Shown: positions 1 to 53,393, counted from the first letter of the stretch. The stretch is DNA of 64,000 bases from Psammoneis japonica (GCA_008632985.1 QPGO01000068.1:124001-188000); one strand, 5' to 3'. A program made the numbers and translations. Notes: generated by a model not told the origin, from the sequence alone.

Positions 1-1
1 G

Positions 2-9054: not shown

Positions 9055-9081
9055 TCAGAGTAAATTGTGCTACTATCACAT

Positions 9082-12146: not shown

Positions 12147-12152
12147 ATACGG

Positions 12153-16096: not shown

Positions 16097-16173
16097 GGTG
16101 CAAGGAATTCGCAACCGTGGCATGTAGAAACGCGTAGGTCAGTACCGGCGAAGGGTGATGGCGGTGTTCTTCA

Positions 16174-28698: not shown

Positions 28699-29242
28699 GT
28701 TCGCCGCGTTGTTCCAGTTTCTGTGTCCGTTGAGCTCCCAGCTGGTCGTCGGGGAATAGGAAATATGTTGAATTGAGTATACAACTATTTACCAATATTT
28801 ACAAAAATTTCAAAATAATGCCTTATTCATCATCTCAATTCCTAAATAATGATTCCATTCTCAAATTCAACAAACTGCATCAACATAAACTTTCACATGC
28901 TTGAACCCATACCGGTACACAGTGTGCCGATAACGATGAAAGTTGTCCGGGAAAGTGGCGTTGGAGCGGTAGCGCAGCACTGGAGAGCCTGTGTCTTGCG
29001 CATGCATACCTTTGAACCGTTACTAGAACGACACGAGACAGACATGTTCTTGACACCTACTATGGAACCGACGTAAATAAATGGGGTGGGAGTGCTACAA
29101 CCGATGCTATGATGGAGAAACACTATGGAAATTGCCTCAAACGTGTGTTTGCTGTGAAAGAGTGTCTAAATATGTAGTTTACAAAAAGTGTTTGAGGAGT
29201 GAAGACCAATAATCGATGGTGATGTCACCGTTTGGACTTGGC

Positions 29243-31813
29243 CTACTGCAGAGAGTCCATCAAGACTTTCTCCCTACCCCGCTCGTCAAGGCAGGTATTT
29301 ATTGCGTCCAGGACGATTCCCAGTCTCCGGTCCAAAGCAGCAAGCTGACCATCTGACAAAAGATTCTTCTGTCCCCTGGCATGACTTGCGATATCAACCG
29401 ACGTTAGATGAATCAGGGCATCGGAGATGCTCATATTCCACCTTGAAATCCATTGAAGATGCTCGTAAGAATTTTCTCGCAAGACGCAACAGCTCACCAA
29501 GGGCACCAAAAGTTTCATCTCGTCGTATTCCGCAGACTCTGGTAGAAAGCTCTTGCCCTGATCGATCAGCAGCACTGCACCATTATCCTCTCCATCTACA
29601 AACTCGTGCGTATGGCGATCAACGTTCTGGGTGAGGAAATCAAAGATGGCTGTTTCGACGACATCAAGGATCCGAGGCTCCAAAGGAAACTCAGGTTTAA
29701 CATGGATGTCACAGTAATCCTTTGATTTCATGAGCTCTGTTCGTCGTCGGTCCTTGTCATTCCACGCATTGAGCGGAAATCTGGTGCTCTTGTGGCCGAT
29801 GACGAGGTCTGATCCTTCGCGTATCTCCTTAGGTAGAAACAAAATCATGACCCCTTCCATCATGCCGTCCTCTCTGGGACACACGGGATCCTCGCAGAAC
29901 TCACATTTTCCGTAAAAACAGTTCTTCTTTCCTCCGGCATTGGTAAACGTATCACGGAACTCGGGCGTGGCTACCGGAAAAATCTCCTTTTCGATATCTA
30001 GACGACGACCGACGGTGATTGGGGCTCTTCGCATGTCCAAGAGTCGAGACAGATGGAATGCAGCAATCTCTGAGCTATGCAAGTCATTTCCTGGGTCTAC
30101 CCTCATGGGTTTGAAGATAACTTGTTGACCGCCCTTGAGTTCCAAAAGAAGCTTGAGCTGCGAACCTCCTGTTGCAGAGGTTGCTTTGAGGATCTCTCCG
30201 CTCCTTAGTTGGTCAAAGATATGAGCTAGCTCGTTGTCTTTGATGGTGGGAGGTAAGATTTGTCTTGGAGTAATCCATTTAGAGGGGGCCTTCCAGACGT
30301 ACTCTGGGTCGCGATGGGCGGACGCGTGTTGCTCTTGCAGAATCGTGTCGTTCCTCAGCATTTCCAACCAGGCATTGGCTTCTTCTGACTTTCTTTGAGA
30401 AATCTCGTTCGCTTTGATCTTCGTTGAAGTCTTGAACCCCTTCAACCATGCCTTCGCGGAGTCGGATACGTGCAAAGCCTGACTTGCCGTAGGCTTTATG
30501 GCCTTAATATTGCTGAAACCCGCGGCGTACGAGGTAATGTTGGCGATGTTCGTAAAGGCCATACCGTCATCGTGGACGAAGCTTCCATGACGGAAGCTTT
30601 CCGGGTTTACCGCTCGCATTTCTTCAGTCAATGCCGCCATGTCTTCTGGAGCTTGACGATGGCAAAACATGGCTTTCGAGTTACACGTGTTGACTAGGCT
30701 GTGATTGCCGCATTGATTGGGCCATGTCAGGATGGGATAGATAGTGGTGGCATTGGTTTCAACGTCGGGTGTGGCCAAGTTTAGGTAGTACTTTGCCATA
30801 TATCCAACGAGCCAATCGGAGTGGAGGCATAATTGTGGGCTTCGAGCGGAATACTCGCTAATGAGGTCAACGATGGACATACCTTCTTGGAAGAACTCTT
30901 CTTCTCCAATCCGATTGGATTGAATAGCGTCGCAGGCATCTTGGAGAAAAGAGTCATCGCTTTCCTTAGTCGTATTGGTGGAAGAAGTTGTATCGCGATT
31001 GCCACGAAGGCCATGCCTGGAACAGAAAACGGGTTTAATCATGCGCTTGACCGCTCCTTTGGAGAAGACAACACCAAATCCGCCGTAGGGGAATTCATAT
31101 GGAATATTGATTGTCTCGTTTGCTTCAAACAAACACCCCGCGTAGACTCGAGCTTCATTGGGGTCAGCTAATGCTATATGATCCTGAAACATGTTAGCGT
31201 TGAAGAAAGTGTCGTCGTCCACCATGACGACATAGTCTGCCATTGTCTCTTCTGCTGAATTCTTGATGCTGCTCTCGAGGACTCGTAGTGATTGCCCAAA
31301 TCGTCTCTGAGCGCAGTGCCAACCAGGATCGGTCCTGATCACGTAGGTATCCGGCATATCTCCTTCCGTGTGAGAGTAGTGCTCACTCGCAAAAGCCTTA
31401 ATGGGGGGACTAAAGCTTGGATTAGCCCTGCAGGAACTAATGTACGTAAGAGTCTCCTTGCTACTCATTTGAGAGCACGTTTGGTTATGATCGTCCATCT
31501 CGGTCACCCCGATGAACGATCTGATGGACACGTGCGAAGCCCACGTTTCCAACTGAGATTGAAGATACTTGGGCCTGGTAATGGAGCCGACGGACAAGAT
31601 GTCCAGAGAGCGAACGGGATCGTGCAATGGTTCGCGAAGGTTTGAAAGGAATCGAGATCCGAAGTTGCTCTCGTAATTGATGACCGTTCGAGCTAGCTTA
31701 ATCTCCTTGAGCATTATCCAAGCCCAAATTACAGACAGTGACTTCATCAAACCTCTTCTGCGCGACCAAAGGACACACCAGATTGGCTTTGCAGGAGTCA
31801 AAGCTGATAACAT
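29243..31813 (-). CDS. Fringe-like (GT31) glycosyltransferase fused to a FAM20-family secretory kinase
   Basis: N-half: VMVDDDTF, FPYGGFG, HSD. C-half: GSQLKL...FKP, EIAAFHL, RRAP..VGR, CFYGKC, DFL..NVDRH, LIDQGKSF. Confidence 0.85.
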   Translation of the reverse strand: MLSALTPAKPIWCVLWSRRRGLMKSLSVIWAWIMLKEIKLARTVINYESNFGSRFLSNLREPLHDPVRSLDILSVGSITRPKYLQSQLETWASHVSIRSFIGVTEMDDHNQTCSQMSSKETLTYISSCRANPSFSPPIKAFASEHYSHTEGDMPDTYVIRTDPGWHCAQRRFGQSLRVLESSIKNSAEETMADYVVMVDDDTFFNANMFQDHIALADPNEARVYAGCLFEANETINIPYEFPYGGFGVVFSKGAVKRMIKPVFCSRHGLRGNRDTTSSTNTTKESDDSFLQDACDAIQSNRIGEEEFFQEGMSIVDLISEYSARSPQLCLHSDWLVGYMAKYYLNLATPDVETNATTIYPILTWPNQCGNHSLVNTCNSKAMFCHRQAPEDMAALTEEMRAVNPESFRHGSFVHDDGMAFTNIANITSYAAGFSNIKAIKPTASQALHVSDSAKAWLKGFKTSTKIKANEISQRKSEEANAWLEMLRNDTILQEQHASAHRDPEYVWKAPSKWITPRQILPPTIKDNELAHIFDQLRSGEILKATSATGGSQLKLLLELKGGQQVIFKPMRVDPGNDLHSSEIAAFHLSRLLDMRRAPITVGRRLDIEKEIFPVATPEFRDTFTNAGGKKNCFYGKCEFCEDPVCPREDGMMEGVMILFLPKEIREGSDLVIGHKSTRFPLNAWNDKDRRRTELMKSKDYCDIHVKPEFPLEPRILDVVETAIFDFLTQNVDRHTHEFVDGEDNGAVLLIDQGKSFLPESAEYDEMKLLVPLVSCCVLRENSYEHLQWISRWNMSISDALIHLTSVDIASHARGQKNLLSDGQLAALDRRLGIVLDAINTCLDERGREKVLMDSLQ

Positions 31814-32063
31814 GGTCGGTAGGATTAGAGAGCTGCGGAACGTTGGGACGATTGGTGGAAAAATTGTGTTTCGTGTTCCTTGTTAGTGCTCCGTTTCGGA
31901 GTTTTTGTGTTTTGTGGGGCTAACAAGGGTGAGTGAACAAAGTCACGCGATCCTCCGATGACGTCAGCTTTCTGGCTGAGTTTTTGCGTGTTTTTCCGTC
32001 GTCGACGACGGAAGCAAACACACCCAATAAAAAACAAATGTCATGACAAAAAGTAATGACCAT

Positions 32064-32114
32064 TGATAAAAAGTCATTTCTGATAAAAAGTCATTTCTGA
32101 TAAAAAGTCATTTC
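32064..32114. repeat. Three exact tandem copies of the 17-mer tgataaaaagtcatttc
   Basis: Units at 32064, 32081 and 32098; a degenerate fourth unit at ~32044. Confidence 0.9.
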
Positions 32115-33024
32115 TTACAGCTTACAGTATTTACTCGTACGTAGGAGGGTCATAGCTCTACCCAGTGCCGTAAAGCAAGGGTCGCCTTTCCAAAAAAGAT
32201 ACATGTAGAATTTATGCGGTCATTTTCCTTCAAAATGTGTTGCAGTGCAAATGCACGTGCAGTTACCTGTATGTACGACGTATTTAACACGTTTTCACGA
32301 TTGAAAGTCATGAAGAGTCATTAAGTCCGTTGGATTTTGTCGCGGGCAAGACTGCTTTGGTCACAAGTGCGGGAAGCTCATGGGGAATGAAGGAGTGCGT
32401 CACTGCAGAGCCAAGCAGGAACTGCTTCTTATGCACGCGGAGCTTTCCTTGGTTGTGCGAACCATGACCACCACCACCACCTTCCTTGCTGTTCTCATTG
32501 CCACAATGTCTTGCCACAGCAACAGGCAACAGTGCAGCATCATTGATCTGATGTGCAGAGGAAGTGCTCAGTTTGGCGTCACCGCAGGGTGCCCAAAGTT
32601 CTCCGGGGCTGCCACCTTTTGATGTGCTCTTCTGCAAACTCGAGCTCCCAGGGAATTGCCATGAGCACTGCTTTGTCATGCACATGCTTCAGATGTGACT
32701 GTGCACAAATTCACGCACATTGGTGGTTTCCCGTGCTTCCCCTCTCATGCACTCCTCCCGCGCGTCTTCTGCACGCTGGAACGTGCAAAGCCACACTCGG
32801 AGAAATCAACGATCAACTGACTGCAACAAACAAAAATGGGCAGGATGTGCCATGGTGCTTTTGAGCCCCTTTTGTAACAACTTTTGTTCATCAACGACAG
32901 CGCCACACCATGCATTTGACAGTGTCAATTGAGTGGGATCTGTGGCATGAAACATGAGATGAAATGTGATGGCTCATGTGCAGAACACCAGCGCAATTGA
33001 TCATCAGCCGTCTGCCATTTTTTT

Positions 33025-33428
33025 GTCGTGCAATCACAAATGCAAGCTGCAAGGCATGTGTCAAGAGTCAAGGCAAAAGCAGAGCCATGCATGGCTGGTG
33101 ATGACAGTGTGGTGGATTGGGCAGTCACCTTCATTCTTCCAATTGAAACATCTTGTGCGCAAAATGAAGTGGATTGCTCAAATGACTCTTGTGTCATGCA
33201 GTCACAAATGCAAGCTGTGAGGCATCTGGAGCAAATGCTGAGGCAAAAGTAGAGCCATGCATGGCTGACAAAATGTGGCTGATTGACTGACCATGTTTGT
33301 TCTTCCCTTTGACCCTTCTTGTTTCTTGTGCACAGAGTGCAGTGTGTCATTTTTGCTTCTTTGTTGTGTGGCCACAAACACAAACTGCAAGGGCTCTGGA
33401 GCAAAGGCCAAGGCAAAAATGGAGCCAC
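33025..33428. repeat. Degenerate tandem repeat, period ~170 bp
   Basis: cacaaatgcaagctg...aggcaaaag.agagccatgcatggctg recurs at ~33025, ~33193 and, more decayed, ~33368. Confidence 0.55.
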
Positions 33429-36400
33429 ACACAAGCAACTCAATGTCAATGTGGGTGATTCAATGGCAAAGTTTGTTCTTCTTTCCTTGCTCTGCCGCAA
33501 GGGGCTGCTCTTTGTGTCAGTGTGTTGATGCATCAGAGTCACAGTTGCTGCCCACAATTGCTGGATGGTTGCAGAGCTTGTGGACATGTGATTAAACAAC
33601 AGGATTGATGGGCCATGTTTGATCAGTGTCAGATCAGTTGCTGGCTGGCCTCCCACTTCCAGCACAATCCTGCAGCATCTGCAGAAACTTCAAATGGCTG
33701 TGTGCCAAATTTTGTGGGGCAGAGCTTTTTCAATGCAGCATGGATCCAAATCTGCACCATGCACCATGTTGCGTCCTTTCAAAAATCAACATCTGTTGGT
33801 GTTGTTGGTGCTGCCCACATGTTGCAAGGTGTGTTGCAATGGTGCATGTCTGCCCTCTTGTTCCAGTCAATTTTGACTTGATCTGCTGCTCTCTTCTTTG
33901 GCACGTGTTCTTTTGTCACTTTTTTAGAGTTCACCATGTGCCCTGTGTGTGCACTGGGCACTGAAAAAGAAGATGTGTTGCGACTTTGTCGTTGTGAAAA
34001 TTGTGAGCTAGTTTAGAGTAGAGAAAGTGGGATCGTGCGAATGGGGAATCTTGCCAAATCCCCATTCATTCGCATTTGGATCGCATCAAATCGATCGTGC
34101 GTTCACATTGTGGATCGTGCGAATCAAGCCATCACGCGCCATGCACGAGTGATGTCATCATGTGGAATCACGCTGCCATCGTGGGCCAGACGATGGGCCA
34201 GTGTGCTTCACACGGATGCTCTCTTGGCATCCTTCTGGAATTGCCCAAGACCTGGAGCCACGCCCTCCTGTGGTCGTGCTTCCCAGGCACGCGTCAACAA
34301 TGCCACGTTGCTGCGTGCAAGAGGCTCACACACGGTCTCACCATGTTGTCCAGTGGTGAGGCATGCTGCACACTCCCCCATGATCAGGGCCATTGAGTGA
34401 CAGGATGTCTTGCTGGTGACAGGTGCAATCTGCCGCAGATTGCACGCATCTGTCAGCGCTCCGTTCTGGATGCGCAACGTGCCGTTGTCAAACACACGGA
34501 CAACTCTGGTGGGTCCTGCACAGCTGTCAGAACCACATTTAGAGGATTGTTCCTGTTTGACAAGCATCAATTGCCCTGCGGTGCATTGACACTCCTTGCA
34601 TTTCTGATTTTCACGCTTGTCATTTAAGTGGACAAGCTTCTGCTTTCTGGTTTCCATGTGCTTCCACTCAGCACGATGGGCAACAGACAAAACCGCATCA
34701 CGTCCGAAGACCAATTGCATGGGACTTGCACGCGTGGTCGTGTGCACTGCAGCTCTGATGGCGAAGGCTGTGCCCCATGCATGCACTGGGCACTGAAAAA
34801 GAAGATGTGTTGTGACTTTGTCATTGTGAAAATCACGAGCCAGTTTAGAGCAGAGAAAATGGGATCGTGCGAACAGGGAATCTTGCCAAATCCCCATTCG
34901 TTCGCATTTGGATCGCATTGAATTGATCGTGCGTTCGCATTGTGGATCATGCGAATCAAGCCATCACGCGCCATGCACGAGTGATGTCATCGTGTGGAAT
35001 CACGTTGCCATCGTGGGCCAGACGACGGGCCAGTGTGCTTCACACGGATGCTCTCTTGGCATCCTTCTGGAATTGCCTGAGACCCAGAGCCACGCCCTCC
35101 TGTGGTCATGCTTCCCAGGTGCGTGTTGACAATGCTACGTTGCCATGTGCAAGAGGCTCATGCACGGTCTCGCCGTGTTGTCCAGTGGCGAGGCACACTG
35201 CACACTCCCCCATGATCAGGGCCGTTGAGTGACAGGATGTCTTGCTGGTGACAGGGTGCAATCTGCCGCAGATTGCACGCACCCATCAGCGCTCCGTTCT
35301 GGACACGCAACGTGCCGTTGTCACACACACGGACAACTCTGGCGGGTCCTGCACAGCTGTCAGAACCGCATTTAGAGGATTGTTCCTGTTTGACAAGTGC
35401 CAATTGCCCTGCGGTTTGTTGATGCTCCTTGCGTTTCTGATTTTCACGCTTGTTGTTCAAGTGGGTGAGCTTCTGCTTTCTGGTTTCCATGTGCTTCCAC
35501 TTGGCACGATGGGCAACAGACAAAACCGCATCGCATCCGAAGACCAATTGCATGGGACTTGCATGCGTGGTCGCATGTGCCGCAGCTCCAACAGCGAAGG
35601 CCACTGCGGAGAGGATGCCACTCCATGGGTCATCTTCGTCCAGCTCCATGTCCTGCACTGAAAAGAAACGCACCATGTTGCCAAGTGTCTGGTGTGCATG
35701 TTCCACTGTGGCATTCGCCTGTGGATTCCGTTTGCTTGTGGGTTTCTTCAAAATCCCACAGTCATTTTTAATCATCTGGCTAAATTCTGCCACAAATTCT
35801 GTCCCACGGTCACAAACCACCTGGGTTGGCCACGGACATCTGTGTGGCCATGTTTGTTCCATGACGTTTGCTGCAACGTCTGCGCGTTTCGCAGACACTT
35901 CTTTAATCTCGAACCACCCGGTTGCTGGGTCAATCATTGTGACTGCCCACAATTGCAAAGTGTCCTTTCCGCGTCTTTGAATTTTATGTGGCCCCATCAC
36001 ATCTGTGCATGGAGTCTCCCATGGAATTGTCTCTGCGACCTTTTCTGGTGGCTTCCCATGACGCTGCGTTCGGCGTTTTGTCTTCTGGCATCGATCGCAC
36101 TCAACGCACGTAGAATGCACCGTAGACCTCACACCAGGCCAACAGAAGTGCTGGGCAATGGACATTTCCGTGCGTGTCTCACCTGGATGACACAGTGTCT
36201 CGTGGTGCCATTCAGTTAGCGGAACCTGCAATGACTGTGGTGCTGCGATTTTGTCCTTATGACAGATTGACTGTCGTGGTGACCCTCCCCCACGATGCGC
36301 GCAAATGGAGCAGTCGGACGAGTCCTCAGCTCGTGAGAGCAGGCGCTTGTCCTTTTGTCATGCTTTTTGAATGCGCTTGAAGCCAACAGGCAAAGATGGC

Positions 36401-36896
36401 TCATCTTGCGCGTCTGTGTTAAAAGCTTCATGTGAAGGATGACTCAATGGAGTGTCTTTTACATCCGGACTGGCCTCGGAAGGCAAGCTGGGTGCCAGTT
36501 GAAGGCGACTAAGAGCGTCAGTGACTGGGTCATGGGCACCCTTGACATGGCGTAATTCGGGGCCACACTCTTCGCATGTCAACCGCCAGCGCATGGCGTG
36601 CTTGGTGTTGAATGCTTTGTGCGTAAGATTTTTGTGATCAGTGCACATGATCATGCGATGACCAAGGAGAGTCGTTCGAAATTCTTTCAACGTCTCCACA
36701 ATGGCGAGTGATTCTCTCTCCATTGTTGCACAATTTAATTGCGCACTGTTGAGCTTTCTGCCATGAAAGGCAACAGGTTCATTGTCTTGGGATGTGACTG
36801 CTCCCAATTGACATTTAGAGGCATCGGCATGCATCTCAAAGGGTTTGTTAAAATTGGGATGTGACAATAAAACATCATCCGATGTCACCCGTTTAA

Positions 36897-37429
36897 TGCA
36901 CTCGCACAACGAGCTGATGGATGGCAAGACGATTTGACATTCTGAATTTTTTTTGTGCTGGAAACTTCGTGCGCGCTACACGAGCATCGCTAAAAATCGG
37001 CAACATGACGGCGGTGCGTTGTCGTAATGATGGCGACGACATTGACGTGTCCTGGAGTCTTTGAGCATTACAGACATTTAGATTGTTAAATTTGCGAACA
37101 CACAAAGTCATGAAATGGACCAGGAGCAGCCTTCGTTCAATCGCAAAACGTCGCACCAATGCTGAGCTCTGTTTTTTGACTGTCATTTGATGCATTCAAT
37201 CATCGAACGATTGTGAGCTCGTCCGGGCAGCTTTCTTTGCGCATTGATGTTCTTGAGAGCATCATTGACAATGCCATTGAGTGCACACTTTAAAGTCGTT
37301 CTGTAAGACAGTCAGAAAAATGTCATCGTCATCATCGGCGTCGACGGCAATTTGTCGCGCAAATCGCAAAAAAAGCACCACAGTCGTCTGCCCGACATTG
37401 CGCCACTGTGCGCTGGTTGCGCGAATGCC
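36897..37429. mobile_element. TTAA-targeted MITE inserted in RT/RNase H
   Basis: Absent from the outer copy; flanked by TTAA (36893-36896) and TTGA (37430-37433); imperfect 18-bp TIRs tgcactcgcacaacgagc / gctggttgcgcgaatgcc. Confidence 0.75.
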
Positions 37430-40296
37430 TTGACGGTTTCGAACGCCTCGTCTTCAATGGACGTCCACTCCCACTTGACAGTCTCGCTTACGAGTCGTGC
37501 CAGCGGAGCCAAGACTTCAGAACGTCCAATCCACGTGTCGCGGCAGCAGCTCACCATGCCAATGAATGAACGCAGGTCGCGTTTGTTGGTTGGGGTCGCG
37601 ATTCGCTCAATGGCGTCGACTTCATCAGGTGTTGGTCGTGTTCCGTCTCCATTGACCAGATGACCCAAGCATTCTAATTGGGTTTGACAGAAATGAGATT
37701 CAGTTGCGTCAACTTTTAGCCCTGCTTTCTGGACCCTCAATGAAACTTCTTCAAGTTTGTTGAGGTGATCTTCATGGGTGCCTTTCGTCACGATGAGAAG
37801 GTCATCTAAGTGCGTTTGAACGAACGATGGATCTTCAAACAAGCCTGACATGCGTTCTTGGAAAATGTCTGGCGAATTGCATGATCCCATGGGCAATGCC
37901 TGCATCTCACACTTGCCCCACGGGAAGATGAGCGTGCAGAGCTTCTCACCATCAGTGTCCAATCGTACATGATAATAGCCCATGTTTAAATGCAGCGATG
38001 TAGCCCACATAAAGCCTTCGAGCTTAAGTAGCACATCTTGGATATGAGGAATCGCATAAGGCAATCGCTTGATCCGTTTATCCAGCTCTCTGAAATCATT
38101 AATAAAGCGTACCGTTAAATCTTTCTTCGGTATGATAAATGATGGAGCTGCCCATTGGGATCGGTTAACGCGTTTGAGAACACCGATACGTACTAGGCGT
38201 TCTACTTCTTTACGTAGCGTAGCTTCGTACGCACGAGGTACTTTATACGGACGAGCGTGGTATGGTTCTACACCCTCCTTGAGTTGGATATGGTAGGGTT
38301 CTCCCTTCCATTCTCCTAATGTCCCATCAAATAAGGACTCATGGCGTCTCAATAGTGCCAAAAGGTCGTTTTGTTGAACTATAGAAAGTCCTATTGTCCC
38401 TCGCGTTATGTCCTCGAGGCAGGCCGGCGCGTACTTAGCGTCTAAAATACGCGAAATCCGGTCGGTTTCCGAAGATAAGGCTTCTGGATCTTGAAGATAG
38501 AAGGAGGTTTCCACCGTAGCATCTACGTGCCTCATTGGTACTTCTCCATTGACTAATGGCCACTCTATCATCTGTTTAGAGAAGACAATATCAATGCCTT
38601 GCGTCTCCAGAATGTCACGTCCAATAATCATATCGTACTTGCCCAACTTTCCGTTGTGTACGTGGACGGTATGTTTAAGTTCTGCAGTTTCGCATAATTC
38701 TGGTAACCAAAATTTAACGGTACAGTCGTTAGACGTACTGAACGAGCCTGCTACCGTAGTCCAGTTTGTCTCAGCCGTTGAATGGCTTCGCAGACGTTTA
38801 CAGTATCGACTATCGAGAAGAGTACTGCTGGCGCCACTATCTAGTAGTGCCTTAATAGTTTGAGTCTTGCCCTTGCAATGTTTAGTATTCATAGCTATAA
38901 ACAAGATTGGAGTAAGATGAGTCTTTTTCACTCGTTTACGGGATTGGCCTACAACACGTGTACGATGGTAATTTAGTTGTTCATTTATACATTCATCAAA
39001 TGTATTAAAACTACCTGTGTCGTGTCGGCCCCCTTCTCAGGCGTCCGAGTCTTCGGAATCACTTAAGTTGAGGTCGCGGAAGTGATTGAGCTCCTCCTCG
39101 CGTGCCTTACGCTTTTTCTGGGCGTTGGCAAAGAACTCCTCGACCTTCGATCCGATGAGAGCATTAACATCTTCCTCATTCTGAGGTTTTGCACTAGGCT
39201 TGCTGCCTCCATCATTGGAATGTCCAGTCTTGACACGTTTCACGTGGTGCTTGAGCTGACGGCAGTCCTCCGCATGGTGTCCACAGCCAGTCCCGTGCAG
39301 CACACACGACTTCTGGGTGTTCCGTTGGGTCGTGATCAACGACTCAGGATTGTCCGTTCTACGTCCCCGCTTGCGTGGAACCTTAGCATGTTGGTCCTGG
39401 TTACCTTCGGCAAGCTCGACCTGCTCGATGCGCTCGCAGAACTGCACAAATTCGGCGACAGCATGCGCCAACGGGTCAAAATTCTGCAACGTCATGAACT
39501 TCTGCCATGCGTTTGGCACACCGTGCTCGAACACATCGCACAGTTCGTCATCAGGTGATGGTGCCAGTGTTTCTCCATCCTCCATCATGGGTGGAAACTG
39601 AGAGACACAGCCGTTAATTTCAACAGCCCTCGCCACGCAGTCACGAGTGGAAACCTCCGCGGGCTTGTGTGTGAAGCGCCGCAGATGACGCTTCTGCAAT
39701 GGTGCCGCCCCATGTGGGAAGATACTTTCCTTTAGCTTTGCGACGCATGCTGCACACGTGGCGTTGGTTTGGGATGCCTGCTTGTCAGCGGCATTGTCAA
39801 ATGACGTCAGAGCATCGCTCTGCAGCAGGTCACGCACAAGGGCAAATTTTGCTGGCCCGGTCATGATGTTTTGTCCTTCGTGCACGCGATCCACGTTGCG
39901 CAGAAAGATTGGGAGTGTCTCGCATGTAGCCGCAGAAAGGTGCGGAATGCCCATCTCGTGTGTTGGACCATCTGGATCAGTGGGGTTGTTGCGCAGCTTG
40001 AACGTCTGGCACTCGCCCTGCTGCAGCTCTTTCTTCTCCGGCCGTGCGAACGGAATCGGCGGCTCAACCCGCTTCTTCATGGTCGTTTTAAGATTTGTCG
40101 GTCCTGCCAACATTTCGTAGTTTCGTTTCTGTAGATTTTGTCACCTCGCACAACATGCGGGAGTGACATTGCTGTGCCCTGTGTGTGTGCCAGGCGCTGA
40201 AAAAGAAGATGTGTCACGACTTTGTCGTTGTGAAAATTGTGAGCTAGTTCAGAGCAGAGAAAATGGGATCGTGCAAATGGGGAATCTTGCCAAATC

Positions 40297-40724
40297 CAGC
40301 GTTGTAAAATCGTCAACTTTCTCCCAACAATCACGGATTGCAACCATCGATTGCGTGCGGCTTCGCAGCAATCGAAAGATCGCAATGCACGCGCGCTTGC
40401 CACGTGTGACAATCGATTGCAATCGCGATCGCGATTGGCCACCGCGCGGAATTCGTGCGCCCCACGCAGGGGCGCCCTCTGCGCAAGAACGCATTTTTCG
40501 TGAATGTGTGCCACGTTTCGGTCAATTTTTAGTCCCGTGTGCGATGAAAATCCCGATTCACGACTGAATTTTAGACACGAATCGATCGCGATCGATCGCG
40601 AACACGATTGCGATCTTTGTGACCAGCGCCAGACAAACAATCAGCAGATTGCAATCGTTTCAATCGCGATCCGCAATCGAGTTGCAAACAAGATTGCAAT
40701 CGAGTTAGCGATTTTATGACGCTG
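40297..40724. mobile_element. hAT-type MITE inserted in an LTR
   Basis: 8-bp TSD gccaaatc; TIRs cagcgttgtaaaatcg / cgattttatgacgctg; CpG-rich subterminal cgat repeats. Confidence 0.85.
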
Positions 40725-43700
40725 GCCAAATCCCTGTTCGTTCGCATTTGGATCGCGTCAAATCGATCGTGCGTTCGCATTGTGGATCGTGCGAATCAAG
40801 CCATCACGTGCCATGCACGAGTGATGTCATCATGTGGAATCACGTTGCCATCGTGGGCCAGACGACGGGCTGGTGTGCTTCACACGGATGCTCTCTTGGC
40901 ATCCTTCTGGAATTGCCTGAGACCTGGAGCCATGCCCTCCTGTGGTCATGCTTCCCAGGCGCGTGTCAACAATGCTGCGTTGCCACGCACAAGAGGCTTG
41001 TGCACGGTCTCGCTGTGTTGTCCATTGGTGAGGCACACTGCAGCTGCTGCGGAGAGGATGCCACTCCATGGGTCATCTTCGTCCAGTTCCATGTCCTGCA
41101 CTGAAAAGGAACGCACCATGTCACCAAGTGTCTGGCGCACACGTTCCACTGTGGCATTCGCCTGTGGATTCCGCTTGCTTGTGGGTTTCTTCAAAATCCC
41201 ACAGTCATTTTTAATCATCTGGCTAAATTCTGCCACAAATTCTGTCCCACGGTCACAAACCACCTGGGTTGGCCACGGACATCTGCATGGCCACGTTTGT
41301 TCTACGACGTTTGCCACGACGTCTGTGCGTTTCGCAGACACTTCTTCAATCTTGAACCACCCGGTTGCTGGGTCAATCATTGTGACTGCCCACAATTGCA
41401 AAGTGTCCTTTCCGTGTCTTTGAATTTTATGTGGCCCTGTCGTGTCCATGCATGGAGTCTCCCATGGAATTATCTCGGTGACCTTTTCTGGCAGCTTCCC
41501 ACAACGCTGCGTTCGGCATTTGTTTCTGACATCGATCGCACTCAACGCACGTAGAATGCACCGCAGACCTCATGCCAGGCCAACAGAAGTGCTGGGCAAT
41601 GGACATTTCCGCACGTGTCTCACCTGGATGACACAGTGTCTCGTGGTGCCATGCAGTTGGCGGAACCTGCAATGACTGTGGTGCTGCGATTTTGTCCTTA
41701 TGACAGATTGACTGTCATGATGACCCTCCCCCACGACATGCGCGAATGGAGCAGTTGGACGAGTCCTCAGCTCGTGAGAGCAGGCGCTTGTCCTTTTGTT
41801 GTTCTTTTTGAATGCGCTTGAAGCTAACAGGCAGAGATGCATCGTCTTGCGCATCTGCATTAAAAGCTTCATGCAAAGGACGACTCGATGGAGTGTCTTT
41901 TGCATCGGATTGGCCTCGGAAGGCAAGCTGGGTGCCAGCCGAAGGCGACCAAGAGCATCAGCGACTGGGTTGTGGGTGCCCTTGACATGGCGTAATTCGG
42001 GACCGCATTCTTCGCACATCAACCGCCAGTGCATGATGCGCTCGGCATTGAGTGCTTTGCATGTAAGATTTTCATGACCAGCACATGTGAGCACACGATG
42101 ACCAAGGAGAATTGTTCGAAATTCTTTCAACGTCTCCACAATGGCGGGTGATTCTCTCTCCGTTGTTGCACAATTTAATTGCGCACTGTCAAGCTTTCTG
42201 CTGTAAAAGGCGATGGGTTTATTGTCTTGGGACACAACTGCTCCCAATTGACATTTAGAGGCATCGGTGTGTGTCTCAAAGGGTTTGTTTAAATCAGGAT
42301 GTGACAACAAAACATCATCCGATGTTGCCCATTTGACGGTTTCGAACGCCTCGTCTTCAACGGACATCCACTCCCACTTGACAGTCTCGCTTGTGAGTCG
42401 TGTCAGCGGAGCCAAGACTTCAGAATGTCTGATCCACGCATCACGGCAGTGGTTCACCATGCCAATGAATGACCGCAGGTTGCGTTCATTGGTTGGGGTC
42501 ACGATTCGCTTGATGGCGTCGAATTTATCAGGCATTGGTCACATTCCGTCTCTGTTGACCAGATGACCCAAGCACTCTAATTGGGTTTGACAGAAGTGAG
42601 ATTTAGTTGCGTCAACTTTTAGTCCTGCTTTCTGGACCCTCAACAAAACTTCTTCAAGTTTGTTGAGGTGATCTTCGTGGGTGCCTTTCGTCACGACGAG
42701 AAGGTCATCCAAGCACGTTCGAACGAACGACAGATCTTCAAACAAGCCCGACATGCGCCCTTGGAAAATGTCTGGCAAATTGCACAACCCCATGGGCAAC
42801 ACCTGCATCTCACACTTGCCCCACGGGAAGATGAGCGTGCAGAGCTTCTTGCTGTCAGCATGATCGGATGTGACAACAGCCCATGTTTAAATCCAGCGAT
42901 GTGGCCCACATGAAGCCTTCAAGCTTGAGCAGCACATCTTGGGTGTGAGGAATCGGAGAGGCAATCGCTTGATCTGTTTATTCAGCTCTCTCAAATCATC
43001 AACAAAGCGCACCGTTAAGTCTTTCTTCGGCATGACAAATGATGGAGCTGCCCATTGGGATTGGTCAACGCGTTTGAGAACACCGACACGTGCCAGGCGT
43101 TCTACTTCTTTGTGCAGTGTAGCTTCGTGCGCACGAGGTGCTTTACACGGACGAGCGTGGTGTGGTTCTGCACCCTCCTTGAGTTGGATGTGGCAGGGTT
43201 CTCCCTTCCATTCTCCCAATGTCCCATCAAACAAGGACTCGTGGCATTTCAACAGTGCCAAAAGGTCATTTTGTTGAACTGTAGAAAGTCCCACTGTCCC
43301 TCGTGTTATGTCCTCGAGGCAGGCCGGCGCGCACTTGGCGTCCAAAATGCGTGAAATCCAGTCGGTTTCCGAACACAAGGCTTCTGAATCTTGAAGATAG
43401 AAGGAGGTTTCTACCACAGCATCTGCGTGCCTCATTGGCACTTCTCCATTGACCAATGGCCACTCTGTCATCTGTTTGGAGAAGACAACATCAATGCCTT
43501 GTGTCTCCAGAATGTCACGTCCAACAATCACATCGCACTTGCCCAACTTTCCGTTGTGCACGTGGACGGCATGTTTAAGTTCTCCAGTTTCGGATGATTC
43601 TGGCAACCGACATTTAACGGTGCAGTCGTTAGACGCACTGAACGAGCCTGCTGCCGTAGTCCAGTTTGTCTCAGCCGTTGAACGGCTTCGCAGACGCTTG

Positions 43701-44608
43701 CAGCATCGACTGTCGAGCAGAGCACTGCACTGCTGGCGCCACCATCTGGCAGTGCCTCAATGGTTTGAGTCTTGCCCTTGCCATGTTCAGTGTTCACAGC
43801 TGCAAACAAGATTGGAGCAAGATGAGTCTTTTTAACTCGTTTGCGGGATTGGCCTGCAACACGTGTACGATGGTAATTCAGTTGTTCATTGACACATTCA
43901 CCCAATGCATTAAAACTGCCTGTGTCGTGTCGGCCCCCTTCTCCGGTGTCCGAATCTTCGGAATCACTTGAGTTGAGGTCGCGGAAGTGATTGAGCTCCT
44001 CCTCGCGTGCCTTGCGCTTTTTCTGAGCGTTGGCAAAGAACTCCTCGACCTTCGATCCGATGAGAGCATCAATGTCTTCCTCATTCCGAGGTTTTGCATT
44101 GGGCTTGCTGCCTCTGTTGTTGGAATGTCCAGTCTTGACATGTTTCACGTGGTGCTTGAGCTGACGGCAATCCTCCGCATGATGTCCACAGTTAGTCCCG
44201 TGCAGCATGCACGACTTCTGGGTGTTCCATTGGGTCGTGATCAACGACTCAGGATTGTCCGTTGTACGTCCCCGCTTGTGTGGAATCTTAGCATGTTGGT
44301 CCAGGTTACCTTCGGCAAGCTCGACCTGCTCGATGCGCTCGCAGAACTGTGCAAATTCGGCGATGGCATGCGCCAACGGGTCAAAATTCTGTAACGTCAT
44401 GAACTTCTGCCATGCATTCGGCACACCGCACTCGAACATGTCGCACAGTTGTCATCAGGTGATGGTGCCGGTGCTTCTCCATCCTCCGTCACGGGTGGAA
44501 ACTGAGAGATGTGGCCGTTAATTTCAACAGCCCTCGCGACACAGTCACGAGCAGAAACCTCTGCGGGCTTGCGCATGAAGCGCCTCAGATGACGCTTCTG
44601 CAACAGCA

Positions 44609-45127
44609 TGAGGCTACGACCAGCACAATGTGCAACATAGAACATTCAGAACCACACATGTTTCATTTGAATGCATGTCAAATGTCTGAATGATCGGCAC
44701 ATAAAATGACTGCACATGACTCCTGGTGTAGAATTTGTGCCAGTCTACGTGCTTAAAGCTCTGTGAACTGAGGTGCAACAAAAATGACTTACATTGGGTG
44801 AGTTCAAATGTCGGAGCCGCCAAAATCGACCGAGACGCCGGCCACGTCTTTTGACAAAACAAAGCACTTGAATGTGTTGTGTGAAGCAGTCAGAGTTGAA
44901 AAAGCAATGTCAAAATTTGAGAACTGATTTGAGTGGCAAACATTGTCAAATTCTTCTAATTGTTTTTGACAGTGTCGGTTTTTGAGTGCAAATTGCACGG
45001 GTTGCATCTGCAAAAACACCCCAATCATTTGCCAAAAACCATCATCGTTAAATGTCGATGTGCAAAACTTGCAATGCCGGTGTTCGGGACGTTTTTTACA
45101 GTTCACATTGTGCCAGTCGTAACTCCA
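44609..45127. mobile_element. TA-targeted (Tc1/mariner-type) MITE inserted in gag
   Basis: TIRs tgaggctacgaccagcacaatgtg / cacattgtgccagtcgtaactcca; flanks CA and TG reconstruct to a TA TSD; a related end occurs at ~52825-52920. Confidence 0.75.
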
Positions 45128-48100
45128 TGCTGCCCCATGTGGGAAGATGCTTTCCTTTAGCTTCCCGATGCATGCTGTGTACGTGGCGTTGGTTTGGGAT
45201 GCCTGCTTGTCAGCGGCATTGTTGAATGACGTCAGAGCATCGCCCTGCAGCAGGTCATGCATGAGGGCAAATTTCGCTGGCCTGGTCGTCATGTTTTGTC
45301 CTTCGTGCACGCGATCCACGTTGCGTAGAAAGATCAGGAGTGTCTCACATGCAGCCGTGGAAAGGTGCGGGATGCCCATCTCGTGCGTTGGACTGTCCGG
45401 ATCAGCGGGGTTGTTGCGCAGTTTAAATGTCTGGCACTCACCCTGCTGCAGCTCTTTCTTCTCCGGCCATGCGAACGGAATCGGCAGCTCAATCCGCTTC
45501 TTCATGGTCGTTTTGAGATTTGTCAGTCCTGCCAACATTTCGTAGTTTCGTTTCTGCAGATTTCGTTGCCTCGCACAACATGCGGGAGCAATGTCACTGT
45601 GCCCCATGTGTGTGCCAGGCGCTGAAAAAGAAGATGTGTTGCGACTTTGTCGTTGTGAAAATTGTGAGCTGGTTTAGAGTGGAGAAAGTGGGATCGTGCG
45701 AATGGGGAATCTTGCCAAATCCCCATTCGTTCGCATTTGGATCGCATCAAATCGATCGTGTGTTCGCATTGTGGATCGTGCGAATCAAGCCATCACGTGC
45801 TTTGCACGAGTGATGTCATCGTGTGGAATCACGCTGCCATCGTGGGCCAGACGATGGGCTGGTGTGCTTCACACGGATGCTCTCTTGGCATCCTTCTGGA
45901 ATTGCCTGAGACCCAGAGCCACGCCCTCCTGTGGTCGTGCTTCCCAGGCACCTGTTAACAACACTGCGTTGCCACGCACAAGAGGCTCATGCACGGTCTC
46001 TCGCCGTGTTGTCCAGCAGCGAGGCATGCTGCACATGGGTTTTGTTCTGTGAGTGCTGCTTTTTTTGCACTCCCCTTCTCTCCACAATCTGCAGCTTGCT
46101 CTTTCTGCATTTTTGGCACTCGGCTTTTGCTCTTGTGTGGACCACCTTTTTCACAATGTTCCTCCACACATGATGCTTCAGCGATGCAATGGCCATTTGT
46201 TTGCTGCTGTTCTCTTGGGCTGTTCTCAAAAAAGATTGTTGCAACACCTCATTTTTCATCACCTTCTCCATGCAGAAGTCAAGTGGTTGCATTTCATGAG
46301 CTCGGGGGGGGGGGGGGGGGCAGTGAGGAGCCAACACTTTGTGCTCTTCCCTGCAATCTTTGCTCAGATTGAAGCAATTTTCAACACAGTTTCATTGCAG
46401 CAGACTGCTCTCATCTCCTCATGTGATTTTCACAAGGCAGGTCATGTTGCACTTGTTGGATGCCAAGTGTGTGGAATGTGCCACACTGCACTTGTTGCCC
46501 CAGTTGCAAATGCAAGCCTTTTTTGCCTTCCTTTTTGTGCCAGTTGCAGCCTTGGTGCCAGGTGCCATTGCACCGCAAATCCACGAATGAAACAAAGTGG
46601 CTCTGATGGTGCTTGCATCCACTCCATTGTCCCATTGATGGCAGCATTGATGTTTGTTGTTCAAGTGTTGTCGCACATTGTGGCATTCAGAAAAATAAAA
46701 AAAATTGAAAAGCTGCTCTGCACCACAAAATTTGGCGTGCAAAAACTCAAAGCCCCTGCAGCCCATGTCTGGTGGGGGCAGCCGGCAACTGATCTGACAC
46801 TGATTGAACAAGGATGAACTGTGTTGAAGCTGATGGTGGGCCCATGCAGGCCTGCCCATCCTGCTGTTCAATTGTGTGTCCATGACAAGACCAAAAGCAC
46901 ACCCGCCTGACAACAATTGCCGCACATTGCTGGACTCCACTTGTTTTTGTTCCCCTCCCCTGAGCCCTTTCAGTCATTCCTTCCTGCAAAATTTCCCTCA
47001 TTTCCCAGGTTTCTCCCAAAAAGGCAAGGTTCCCCTTGTCACACTGGCCATTTTGGGGAATCCTCAAATGGGTGAAACCAAACCAAGCAAAGATGAAGGT
47101 GGGACTTTCTGCCAACTTCTGTGTGCCACATGTGTTTGATGCCAAATCCATGCCAGGGACACATGGAAGTTTGTTTCACTTTCCAACAAAGCCGTCCATG
47201 GTCCTGCACTTTTGTGCATTGACCCGCTGGAGTTTGTGTTGCAATTTTTCAGCAGAATGACTGTTGAGGACAAACAAATGATTGTTTGTGTGTGTGATTG
47301 TTTGGGTCAGTTACAATGTTGCCATTTGACATGAGCATCACATCAGTTGGCAAGCAAGTCTGAATTTTGGTGGTTTGTTTCCATTTTTGAACTGCAAGCA
47401 TTTTTTCCCCACCTTGTCACAGACACAAAATTTTGTCAGGAGGAGCAGACAAATGGAGGCAGTTGGGAAAATCTTGTCTGTGACAGAGACAGACAGAGAC
47501 AAACCAAAAGGATTGATCAAGTGACATCATTGCCTCCACTGTTGCATCATGTAAAATGAGCACTTTCTCTTCTTTCTCCAATGGCGCTGCAGCACACATG
47601 AAGCCATGAAAGACTCAGAACAAGAGCAGCGAATGTGCAGCCACCAAAAATTTCAAAAATGCACTCCCTTTGATGACCAACCTTCTTCACGTCACAATTG
47701 TGCATGGAGCCAGGGCTCCATTCCCAAGGGACTTCAGACACATTGCTGCACAATGTCATTTTGCTGGAAACAAAGACTTGCAGAGAGACAGCAGCTTGTT
47801 GGAATGACCCTGATTTTGGTCCTGTGGATGTTCAGACCAGGAGTGTCAAAGAGCTGAGCATGGAAAATGCCATTTTGTGTGTCTGCCACAGGCAATGTGT
47901 CAGAGCAAAGATTTTCAAGGGCCAGGGCTGTCCTGCTTGATCTTTGCACCATTTTCTTCCTCAGCGCAAATGAGTCAGAAGCAAAACAGTGGAGTGTTTG
48001 TTGTGCAGTGCAACATGGCACAAGGAACCCTGCACTGCAAAATGGGAAAGCAACTTGGACTTGTCTCATGAAGAAATGTCAACAATTGCTTGCCAAGCAA

Positions 48101-51100
48101 GTGCAGCCACCCTCCCTCCCACACATTTGTCGGACAAGTTTCAGACAACAGAAGAGCAAGGACCAGTTGGTTGTCCATGCAAATGGCACATTTGGACAAA
48201 ACATGCTGTCAACATGACACTCCCATCCAAAATGCCACCACTGTTTTTCCAATGACCCCCAACTGATTTTCCATTGAGAGCACAGTGTCAAACATCACTG
48301 GGCACAGGGGTGCATGAAATGCACAAGGGGAAATTGATTGGAAGTGGCACTCCAAGACTTCTGAATGCATGAGAAACAAGTTTTTGTTGCAGTCAGGGGT
48401 CACAAATCAATTGCCAGCTTTTTTCCATGCAAAACAAGCTGTTTTGTGCTGTCTCATAGAATCAGCACCAGGTTCTGCTGCAGCCAGAAATGGCAGCATG
48501 CATGCTGCCATGCCATTTGTGCTGACAACCAACTGGACTCTGGCAGTTGCTGAAAGAACAGCTCCCATTTGCCATTGCTCAGATCACATGTGGGAGACCA
48601 TCATTGATGACAATGGGTGCGGAGTGGAGTTGCTTGTTTGCAGCAGAAGCAGCTGAGGATGCTGCCATGGACTGAGCTTGTTCAGCAATTGCAAAGGTGC
48701 ATTTGTTGCAATGTCTGAGTTGTCTCCAACAATGCTGTTTGTCCCTGACATGTTGTTGGGGTCCACAGTTTCTCCATTCACGGCACTGTCATTGTTGTCA
48801 TCATCAGAGCTGTCAAGGCAGGGCTCTGAAGGAGACAAGTCTTTTAAGGTGATGTCATTGAGGTCTGACCTCAGGCTGTCTGAGAGTTGCAATGACCAAT
48901 GTTTGATGGAGGTCAGGGGGGTGCCACACCACAGTTGAGCTGGTGCAATCAAAAAGGATCAAACACCACAATTGGATGGGATGATCATCCATTCATCTTC
49001 ACCCTTCCCAGTCATTGCACTCCTCAATTCTTTGAGAGCTGCAAGCTGCTCATGTTTTGAGAACATGGTGGAGGAGCTGGGCAGACTGTGTCTTTCATCA
49101 CAAGCTGTTCCTGCAGGTTGAAATTTGGGATGTCATGGAATGCAGCCATGACATTTAGATTCCATGTGGATGCATCAGCAGGCAGCAGAGGGATGAGCCA
49201 AACAAAGGCAGCATGTGGCTTGGCAAGGACCGGTGCTTGGCTTTGCCATCATGTCCATGTGAGAAAAACTGCTTTGTCACATGGATTGAGTTGTTCCAAA
49301 ACTTGTCAAAGGCACAGTGTCTGGAGGCTTTCTGAACTTTGATGGGTGCATTCTTGTTGCCACCAAGTTTGACAGTTTAGAACTTGGCATCTTTGGGAGC
49401 AATTTTCTCTGAGAAGGAGCCTGTGTGGCAAAAGTGCTGCTGCACCCCATGTCATTTGATGCCACACAAAAGCAGGAGGTTCCAGCAGAGTGCCGCTGGA
49501 GCAGTGCTGAGGGATCTGAACAGTGATGGTTGTGACTTCTGCAACTGGGTGCCAGATGGAAATTGTGGCAAGAGCCTTCATTTTCTGCTGAGAGTTCAGC
49601 CCATTCATGAACATTTTTGGTCCTTGGAATGGCCCCAGAACAAGTCTCATGTGCATCTGATGCTGTCTCAGCATGGAAGGCATTGGTGTTGTCTTTGATG
49701 TTGTGTGCCAAAGCCCAGCTGACAGCGCCATTGTGTTGATCATGCCACCATGTAAATTGTGCATTTGAGTGCCTTGCTCATCTTTTTATGGGATGATCTT
49801 TTTGCTTGTCTCCACACATGAACATGTTTGGTCATTGGTTTCTGTTGTCACACAATGCATGTGTGTGGTTTGTGCATGTCTGGAATGTGCCCATTGCAAA
49901 TCTTGTGCACCCCAAATGTGCACCAAAAATCAAGCAGTGCTGCCGCTGCAGAGCAAGCTCTCCCACTCACAAACACCGCACACTTGCTGATGACTGCCTG
50001 AAACTTCTTGTGGGGGCAAGAGTGCTGTGACAGGCAAGTGAGACAGTGGTTGACAAAGCAGAGTTTTTAGAACATTAATTTTTGCTGCTTGTGGGCCCCC
50101 TCATGTCAGGATTTTTGACTCGCAGCATTTTGATCCCTCCTCTTTTTCTCTTCCTCTCAGGCTGTGCAGCCCAGTGCCTTGAGCACCAAACTTGGTGATG
50201 AGTTTGTTGAAGGCAGTTGCAAAGATTGTTGATGACAACAATTGTGAAACTGTTTCTAAGTTGGCACACTTGGCTGAGAAACCTTTGATGATGTGAGTTG
50301 CATGTGTTTGCTTTGTGCTGTGGATGCACGGCTGCTGTGCCCCCTGATGAAGTGCTCCTCTGCACCAGCAGCCCACCTGACACCTTGTTGCCTGGCATGT
50401 CTTTGGAAAAAGCAATCAGCAAATCAGCCTTGGTTGAAAAAACTTGATGGTGAGCACTTGGCATGCATGCCCAACCCCAGCTGCAGTGTGCATGTTGAAG
50501 AAGAAAACATGCTGTCCCCGCCCTGGTCACATTGTGCAACAGAGCCAAAGGGCTGCTGGCCAGCACATGGGTGAAAATGGAGGAAACATTTGATGCCAAA
50601 GAAAAAGAAAAGAAAACAAAGCCAAAGCAGCAGCTGACCTTGAAGAAAAGAGGACAAAGCTGGAAAAAAGGGTGCAAGCCAATGAAAAAGAAAACAGACT
50701 GGTGGGCCAAGAACATCACAGTGATTGGTTTGCTTCTGCAGAGAGGAGCTTCTTTTCCCATGACAACCACAGCAGAAATCAGCTGTGAAATGTTCATGTT
50801 GTCTTGCCAGTCATGTGGTGTGTCCCAACTGGCTGTGGGGGAGCTCTTGTCAACTGGCACACCACTGCTTGGTGGCAGTCTCATGGCTTTTGTGACACAG
50901 TGGACACCATGGTGAGCTGTGACCTGCTGCCATCTGCCACCCACAACAGCGGCACCAGCTCTTTTTCCTGAGTGGTGGCACCCCCATCTTTTGAAACAAC
51001 TTCCAATGCCAGTTTTGGGTTTCAATGGGTGTGACTCTGGCTGATGACTGAGTTTGCTTGGCAAGATGAAGCTTTGGTGCACTCAAAGCACTGCTCAACA

Positions 51101-53001: not shown

Positions 53002-53393
53002 GGACGCGTTCCAGCCCCAGGTGGGACTCCGTGTGACATTGGGCCCGTAGAATTCTACGTGCGAGCTCCGTAGTACGAGAATTTAATTAATGGATATATT
53101 TATCTTTAACATCAAATAAACGGCCAAGTTTGTGGTACAATTATGCCTCTTACCACTCGACGTTTTTGCAAATGCACCTGCCCTACGCGATTCTTAAGAC
53201 ATTATAGAATCGCGCTGTAACAAAAAATGTCAAAAGTTGTTGGACGGATCGCTCAATAAGTGTACCGTAAAATGACACAAAATATCAAAAAAATCACGTA
53301 GAAATCTACGTGCGCGACATACGACGTGATTCAAAAAACTATCGATGTCACAGTTCAGCAGTGCGAGGTCCCACCTAGACCTGGAACGCGTCG
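53002..53393. mobile_element. Young TA-flanked MITE, unmutated
   Basis: TIRs ggacgcgttccagccccaggtgggac / gtcccacctagacctggaacgcgtcg; TA on both sides; TA- and CpG-rich interior. Confidence 0.8.

Follow-up and report, generated by a model that had tools for sequence, protein, structure and literature searches.

A TpA-directed A:T to G:C substitution signature in long terminal repeat retrotransposons of the diatom Psammoneis japonica

Introduction

The known defence mutators, fungal repeat-induced point mutation (RIP) and APOBEC, deaminate cytosine, and examples of targeted A:T>G:C hypermutation in DNA are very few. The closest described case is that of the chlorarachniophyte Bigelowiella natans, in which, according to the available part of a 2026 preprint, Illumina sequencing of mutation-accumulation lines found 231 changes in two viral inserts, 230 of them A>G or T>C, reported to be all on TpA and to give TpG or CpA (Mettrop et al., bioRxiv 10.64898/2026.01.13.699255). 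Here we describe a 64,000-nucleotide stretch of the diatom Psammoneis japonica (GCA_008632985.1, QPGO01000068.1:124001-188000; the window, meaning the whole stretch that was analysed), in which two families of Ty3/gypsy long terminal repeat (LTR) retrotransposons carry a signature of the same kind. An initial annotation of this DNA had put the signature forward as a candidate 'reverse RIP' system with no description known to it in diatoms. Since the preprint shows the signature experimentally in a chlorarachniophyte, its novelty was overstated, and it is not categorically new. A literature search found no description of TpA hypermutation in diatoms, and a mutation-accumulation paper on Phaeodactylum tricornutum gives CG, CC and TG as mutagenic contexts and, in its available part, does not report TpA hypermutation (PMC6604790).

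The available part of the preprint also gives a rate of ~6e-7 per site per generation in the B. natans viral regions, with changes in 11 of 15 lines, reports the target as single-copy, finds TpA-poor coding sequences enriched in reverse transcriptase (RT) and DDE domains, and names an ADAT2 homologue as the authors' candidate enzyme (bioRxiv 10.64898/2026.01.13.699255). The Psammoneis locus is similar in its near-exclusive A>G or T>C change at TpA, which affects foreign DNA, leaves the sequence beside it normal and lies far above background, and in a long-term footprint of TpA depletion with CpA and TpG enrichment. Four of five features of the B. natans type are thus found here (A:T>G:C transitions, TpA restriction, foreign-DNA confinement and a high relative rate). 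Unlike the rhizarian B. natans, the host here is a diatom (a stramenopile), and LTR retrotransposons in high copy number are the clear targets. The loss of TpA is also nearer saturation, with an observed/expected ratio (O/E) for TpA of 0.07-0.20 compared with 0.45 in the B. natans nucleocytoplasmic large DNA virus region. A preference for 5'-TAY (Y = C or T) and independent hits in neighbouring copies are added here on comparative evidence only, whereas the B. natans events were seen de novo.

Results

Repeats were located by self-BLAST of the window, open reading frames (ORFs) were scanned with Pfam, and gypsy pol proteins were placed by tblastn. Family 1 is a tandem array on the minus strand with two copies, ~90% identical in self-BLAST: A, whose aligned part spans 35604-40297 (Pfam RVT_1, Integrase_H2C2 and rve), and B (41047-45722), which contains stops and a frameshift. 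LTR-like units of the array lie at 33937-35601, around 40173-41042 and at 45598-46035. The first of these comprises two tandem 832-bp units of pol end plus LTR, also on the minus strand, with a match to the pol C-terminus at 34562-34789. Family 2 consists of two inverted copies at 18213-28032, with arms 95% identical. Pfam matches to RVT_1, RNase H, integrase zinc-binding and integrase core domains fall on the minus strand of family 1 and in both family 2 arms, and tblastn of gypsy pol proteins lands on the same regions; because the two agree, both families are Ty3/gypsy LTR retrotransposons. The layout of that class is present, with RVP (under the Pfam cut-off), RVT_1, RT_RNaseH, Integrase_H2C2 and rve, and with repeated terminal units. 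In sequencing run X1, 4091 contigs align to copy A with summed depths of ~1e4, and family 1 is therefore very high-copy.

The initial annotation started from one pair of segments in copies A and B. Realigning 38061-38460 with 42961-43360 reproduced its 42 differences over 400 aligned bases, 27 of which fall on TpA sites of copy A (T>C ahead of A in 17 cases, A>G following T in 10), and its loss of 27 out of 34 TpA sites (34 TpA in the A segment, 7 in the B segment). Of the 400 positions 68 belong to a TpA, and for 27 of 42 differences to fall there the binomial p is 1.1e-11. The remainder had been given as 10 CpG transitions and 5 other changes; our recount gives 9 and 6. The peptide examples cited for Tyr changed to Cys or His are as stated, with GEPYHIQLKEGVEPYHARPYKVPRAYE and MGYYHVRL in copy A and GEPCHIQLKEGAEPHHARPCKAPRAHE and MGCCHIR in copy B. 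The copy A segment had also been described as TA-rich. This state holds for a patch of ~1.05 kb at 37966-39012 (minus strand), which covers the protease and reverse transcriptase region within a 574-aa open frame with RVT_1 and to which the dense TA positions of copy A are confined, but not for the remainder of copy A, which is as depleted as B.

Compared over the whole patch, the substitutions are concentrated on one dinucleotide. Sorted by the 5' base on either strand, A>G changes number 74/183 after T, 3/163 after A, 4/116 after C and 2/129 after G, an odds ratio of 30 for TpA versus other A:T (p = 3e-33). Where copy A has 89 TpA, copy B has TA at 16, TG at 29, CA at 44 and CG at none. CpG transitions are raised as well (12/120 CpG bases versus 5/336 other G:C), but over the same stretch ~82% of TpA (73/89) was lost versus ~20% of CpG. 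The specificity for TpA and the contrast with RIP and 5-methylcytosine decay, both proposed earlier, are borne out by this spectrum together with the polarity given by homologues (see below).

Both strands are used and the sites behave independently. TG and CA outcomes (30 and 44, a near-equal split with p = 0.13) alternate without clustering (42 runs vs 36.7 expected, z = 1.29), and by this runs test the patch comparison contains no kataegis-like strand-coordinated clusters. The hits are thus not those of a processive single-strand event such as APOBEC kataegis. The base 3' of the A influences conversion (C 31/54, T 23/42, A 8/44, G 11/38), with 5'-TAY preferred, and where a TpA site has TAY on one strand only the outcomes go the expected way, 12:2 and 4:17 (Fisher p = 1.4e-4). 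The TpA sites that survive in B are enriched in TTA and TAA.

If one ancestral TpA is converted independently in two copies, TG in one copy should face CA in the other at about half of such sites. Double differences of this type number 71 (37+34) in the flanks of family 1 and 3 in the patch, with each other double difference at 4 or fewer. Family 2 has 63 such discordant dinucleotides (27+36), and the 832-bp tandem units have 24 in 832 aligned bases. The family 2 arms differ at 197 of 4336 aligned bases, by 196 transitions and 1 transversion; besides the discordant dinucleotides, these differences include 38 sites with TA versus TG or CA. The discordances in families 1 and 2 indicate that the copies were converted independently, and we infer that TpA conversion was, in relative rate, some two to three orders of magnitude faster than ordinary mutation.

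The direction of change was read from proteins. The 574-aa frame of copy A was aligned with 120 homologues at 45-60% identity, and copy B was read codon by codon in the A frame. Where A and B differ and homologues are numerous enough, these side with A at 55 sites and with B at 34, and 6 sites are tied. At patch positions with Tyr in A and Cys or His in B, the homologues have Tyr in 115/119, 119/120, 108/120, 118/120 and 118/120, and the strongly conserved patch Tyr all agree with A (Y134, 115/119; Y202, 119/120; Y354, 118/120; Y355, 118/120). Replacement of Ile by Met, Thr or Val in B follows the same pattern, with Ile in 117/120 homologues at both I302 and I332. Beyond the patch, position 409 is His in A and Cys in B against Tyr in 119/120 homologues, and position 497 is Cys in A and His in B against Tyr in 103 homologues and Phe in 12; since both copies carry His or Cys where homologues have Tyr, both copies are derived there. 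The patch also lies within an open frame that RIP would have broken. As a further reference we took environmental (metagenome) relatives, the best 80 of 536 matches, a selection that favours intact copies; their TpA O/E is 0.56-1.18, and the gypsy family is therefore not TA-poor by nature. The homologue residues, the open frame and the TpA-normal relatives together make TA the ancestral state and TG and CA the derived states, the polarity that had been proposed.

TpA depletion extends well beyond the copies first compared. Counts per block are given as observed/expected. Three host blocks (1001-18212, 28751-32250 and 58251-64000) have TpA at 615/1193, 145/244.5 and 244/411 and CpG at about 1.0 (997/964 in the first). 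Family 2 has TpA at 117/593 and CpG at 669/560. Family 1 outside the patch has TpA at 38/235 (33937-37965) and 82/403 (39013-46035) with CpG about 0.9, and the patch itself has TpA at 91/82.7 and CpG at 60/49.6. In a domain without identified similarity at 46036-58200, both TpA (63/850) and CpG (136/674) are nearly erased and TG+CA is almost doubled (2686/1515). The TG+CA excess of the depleted domains is of about the same size as their summed deficit of TA and CG. A second stretch erased for both lies to the left of family 1 (32500-33936; TpA 4/95.8, CpG 22/83.2), and the start of the window (1-750) is TpA-depleted with normal CpG (1/29.4 and 55/64.8). The LTR parts of the tandem units at 33937-35601 (TpA 2/23.5 and 3/23.5) are depleted, as are two lower-depth inserts, one at 36886-37429 (TpA 9/37.5) and the other a 424-bp insert at 40298-40721, in the LTR between copies A and B (TpA 5/25.4; CpG 52/27.4, nearly twice expected; X1 depth ~500 vs ~47000 alongside).

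Overall, copy A outside the patch, copy B along its whole length, family 2 and ~14 kb of DNA without identified similarity are TpA-depleted, with sharp domain edges that fall inside one 250-bp step (near 750-1000, 32500 and 58250). The initial annotation was right that depletion spans the repeats and spares host genes (TpA O/E 0.07-0.20 vs 0.52-0.59). Depletion deepens by degrees from family 2 to family 1 and on to the 46-58 kb domain, and 46036-58200 looks like the end state of the TpA process. Every identified target is a repeat, yet the equally repeated patch, which by X1 depth is as high-copy as its mutated flanks, is unmutated, and the lower-depth inserts are mutated. These observations, with the single-copy target reported for B. 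natans, leave repetition, the trigger named in the initial annotation, as no more than a candidate. As a separate observation, the TpA O/E of host DNA (0.52-0.59) is at or under the lowest of the 80 related transposon loci (0.56-1.18), which may be a weak genome-wide effect of the same process.

The patch retains CpG as well as TpA, with 13 CpG lost in B versus 3 in A. It also has changes of its own, not at TpA, where the RT is otherwise invariant (Asp 349 replaced by His, Pro 328 by Ala and Asn 319 by Asp), so that its donor was not fully functional or it has decayed since. Transversions number 11/999 aligned bases in patch bins versus 20/3151 elsewhere (summed by hand, with no statistical test), which is suggestive at most of a more diverged donor. 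Gene conversion or recombination with an intact copy and an assembly chimera are the candidate origins, and no contig spans the patch among the X1 matches listed.

The effect on coding sequence is marked. Transposon ORFs contain 0-1.2% Tyr and 4-7% Cys and His; Tyr is 1.2-3.3% in host ORFs, with a homologue median of 3.74%. The open 1022-aa pol of family 2 (Tyr 1.1%, Cys 4.3%, His 4.7%) seems intact and is in fact hypermutated. TAA and TAG drop to 1-7 per kb-strand in mutated DNA while TGA stays near 20, and because TAA and TAG are depleted many frames remain open. Between 33.5 and 46.5 kb, 47 ORFs reach 100 aa or more, and long open frames occur on both strands of mutated DNA. Among the homologues, a gypsy RT from an ENA metagenome (P0238, at 50% identity to copy A) has lost Tyr to Cys or His in 9 of the 13 columns where it is conserved. 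Its Tyr content is 0.59%, and it has few other AT>GC-type replacements (10 forward vs 1 reverse), a hint of the same process in another organism.

The domains without identified similarity were searched for coding content. None of 24 ORFs from 46-58 kb, 32925-33689 and 2-853 had a Pfam match at E <= 0.01 (22 of them came from the 46036-58200 domain and its right edge), and of eight gypsy pol queries none had a tblastn match in these three stretches among the matches listed, which cover two of the eight. A 335-aa ORF at 50075-51082 had no homologue in a phmmer search of 1.84 billion representatives and is probably spurious, open only through the absence of TAA and TAG. A 283-bp unit forms two tandem repeats (96% match) at 55490-56057 within this TpA- and CpG-erased domain. 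Family 2, which is young, is a near-perfect large inverted duplication with arms of ~4.8 kb and a junction near 22.7-23.1 kb. Its arms share a 290-bp terminal unit, found in three places in mixed orientations, that is far less TpA-depleted (obs/exp 13/22.7 and 8/21.0) than the interior.

The host genes, among them those of the unmutated control block at 1001-18212 (ABCF, two PP2C and others), are long uninterrupted ORFs with Pfam matches to ABCF, two PP2C, Fam20C/Fringe, a nucleotide-sugar transporter and a BMT5-like protein. All named relatives of the ABCF protein are diatoms (Odontella, Thalassiosira, Cyclotella, Skeletonema, Mayamaea, Stephanodiscus and Cyclostephanos) at 48-56% identity, and unnamed homologues reach 64%. 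The two PP2C phosphatase ORFs, at 10668-12146 (plus strand) and 13919-15322 (minus strand), lie ~1.8 kb apart on opposite strands and may be a local paralogue pair.

Discussion

That TpA hypermutation took place at the level of DNA is highly probable, and the overall explanation we favour, with a probability of about 0.7, is that transposon DNA was hypermutated in place in the manner known from B. natans. A host process would act on transposon DNA already resident in the chromosome and convert A:T to G:C at the self-complementary TpA on either strand, yielding TpG or CpA. Hits would be independent between sites and would continue until almost all TpA had gone, with adjoining host genes spared, and the outcome at each site would be set by the neighbouring base, the A of 5'-TAY-3' being preferred. 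The most likely chemistry, a tentative choice that we hold at below even odds, would be a TadA/ADAT-like or other deaminase turning adenine in DNA into inosine; TAC, the best context, resembles what we take to be the anticodon-loop substrate of TadA. The same domains would also undergo a slower and separate decay of CpG to TpG or CpA, probably through deamination of 5-methylcytosine. Such deamination accounts for the CpG part of the changes (12/120 vs 5/336; CpG O/E 0.20 in 46036-58200) but cannot yield the TpA loss, and family 2 loses TpA without CpG. Action in place is favoured because strand use is near-equal, conversion is high (73/89, or 82%, in the patch region of B and ~93% of expected TpA gone in 46036-58200), depletion forms a graded series, the tandem units are independent, and the inserts and a 12-kb domain that shows no retroelement similarity are depleted too. 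The enzyme's identity and a defence function are what we infer from these data, and the TpA process probably disables invading DNA.

Several observations weigh against this explanation. Action in place, rather than during retrotransposition, is argued and not proven. The TpA process alone does not account for the unmutated 1.05-kb patch, for which a second event is needed. Position 270 is the one exception to the protein polarity, with Tyr in A but His in 79 homologues. None of the best 80 of 536 related environmental loci is depleted, in a set biased to intact copies. The link from the TAY rule to a deaminase is an analogy with the substrate preferences of TadA. Lastly, the sole supporting run, X1, may be the window's source sample, and its library type is not on record.

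This last point would suit a base-calling or assembly artefact, in which modified bases were miscalled as transitions or consensus building and polishing mixed copies. The patch could likewise be a chimera, and at 38348 no aligned X1 contig has the window base (40 of the 166 variant places are listed). X1 nevertheless consists of k-mer contigs up to 315 kb, which need accurate reads; it holds 0.48 of sampled 31-mers of 35650-45649, where converted sites come every ~12 bases, and 720 of the 4091 aligned contigs are at least 99% alike. Runs X2 and X3 contain almost none of the sampled 31-mers. A strand-specific miscall would give one orientation, whereas the inverted pair shows both TG-vs-CA orientations (27 and 36), and no TpA of 89 became CpG. 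With the neighbour rule, the codon-level fit to homologues and, in the available part of the B. natans preprint, the same signature from Illumina data in another alga, a modified-base miscall is unlikely and artefact as a whole very improbable. The opposite polarity, in which the patch was mutated in RIP-like fashion (C>T at CpA or TpG, making TpA) and the TA-poor state is ancestral, draws on the fact that a pairwise comparison of A and B by itself cannot orient changes. The Tyr residues of A that are Cys or His in B are Tyr in the homologues too, the 574-aa frame over the TA-rich patch is open although RIP would make stops in it, the relatives (best 80 of 536) have TpA O/E of 0.56-1.18, and the TG-vs-CA discordances need a TA (or CG) ancestor. 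The homologue residues and TpA-normal relatives contradict this polarity, and we give it practically no weight.

The remaining rivals accept the polarity and differ on how and when A:T was changed. Editing at the time of retrotransposition, with a deaminase acting on element RNA and single-stranded cDNA so that insertions are born hypermutated, would be APOBEC3-like but on adenine. The clearest targets are retroelements, and copies that have almost no transversions and differ at many TpA fit separate origins from one intact master. It is nonetheless distinctly unlikely: the RNA and cDNA routes should differ whereas the strands are used 30:44 (p = 0.13), conversion of 82% and ~93% is far above the levels usual for single-cycle editing, the depleted 46-58 kb domain lacks retroelement similarity, and the tandem units at 33937-35601 and the lower-depth inserts are depleted and differ independently. 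In B. natans, as far as the preprint's available part goes, vegetatively growing cells acquire the changes in DNA that is already integrated. Error-prone repair synthesis of the Pol-eta kind in heterochromatic repeats, one of the mechanisms listed in the initial annotation, draws on the fact that Pol eta makes A>G changes at WA (W = A or T) with TA the favoured motif, and it could act on either strand. A WA process does not fit the 5'-neighbour spectrum, since AA stands at background (3/163 vs 74/183 for TA), a result that also argues against ADAR-like preferences. There is no patch clustering and there are no strand runs, and occasional patch synthesis would hardly reach near-complete saturation; this mechanism we regard as slightly less probable even than an artefact. 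Finally, a heritable symmetric mark, placed on silenced transposons at T (resembling 5-hydroxymethyluracil (5hmU) or base J) or at A, could mispair or decay and leave T>C or A>G as a by-product of silencing, much as CpG>TpG is for 5-methylcytosine. TpA is palindromic with its strands used about equally, the domain-wide depletion with sharp edges is chromatin-mark-like, TpA loss accompanies CpG decay in older domains, and T before A is the place of 5hmU in dinoflagellates and likewise of base J in telomeric repeats. We know of no such mark in diatoms. The strong TpA loss of family 2 without CpG loss makes the two processes separable, and 196 transitions to 1 transversion exceeds what passive decay would lead one to expect, so that this explanation, too, is unlikely, although it keeps some probability.

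Among established mutators, fungal RIP shares with hypermutation in place DNA-level, both-strand, dinucleotide-specific transitions that are confined to transposons with sharp edges and have independent outcomes in sister copies. Unlike RIP, which makes C>T changes mainly at CpA and creates TpA and stops, the process seen here destroys TpA, so that TAA and TAG vanish and frames stay open; the defining C:G>T:A chemistry is absent, the polarity is reversed, and RIP itself is rejected. With APOBEC3 it would share deaminase-type hypermutation that disables retroelements. APOBEC3 acts on cytosine in minus-strand cDNA only, with asymmetric G>A, unlike the A:T>G:C change on both strands at TpA seen here, and APOBEC-type cDNA editing is rejected on the 30:44 split of A>G and T>C. 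An A-to-G outcome with a preference for U or T 5' of the edited A is a likeness to ADAR hyper-editing and to the ADAT-dependent A-to-I editing of fungal mRNA. Those act on RNA, however, and would mark the sense strand only, and ADAR accepts a 5' A too, whereas AA here is at background. ADAR/ADAT RNA editing copied into DNA is rejected because both orientations occur inside one copy and alternate without runs.

It is important to consider what the signature means for algal genomes. To the published phenomenon this locus adds a host lineage, a target class, a deeper footprint and context rules, and the constraints gained are that both strands are hit, that hits are independent between sites, that TAY is preferred and AA spared, and that TpA loss is faster than CpG decay. 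Hypermutated elements bear spurious long ORFs and Tyr-poor, Cys/His-rich 'proteins' with similarity under thresholds, which affects gene and repeat annotation, and the long frames in mutated DNA of this window (33500-58200) could be mis-annotated as genes. The near-saturated TpA footprint on diatom LTR retrotransposons suggests that the system is widespread among major marine algae. TpA-directed A:T>G:C hypermutation may be an ancient defence system shared across the stramenopile-alveolate-rhizarian (SAR) group, acting in place on transposon and viral DNA under a 5'-TAY rule and disabling elements through the loss of Tyr and Ile codons while frames stay open, a possibility that we put somewhat short of an even chance. 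If this SAR-wide reading is true, the presence or absence of the footprint across algae would identify the enzyme that edits adenine in DNA, nature's own equivalent of the adenine base editors built by engineering.

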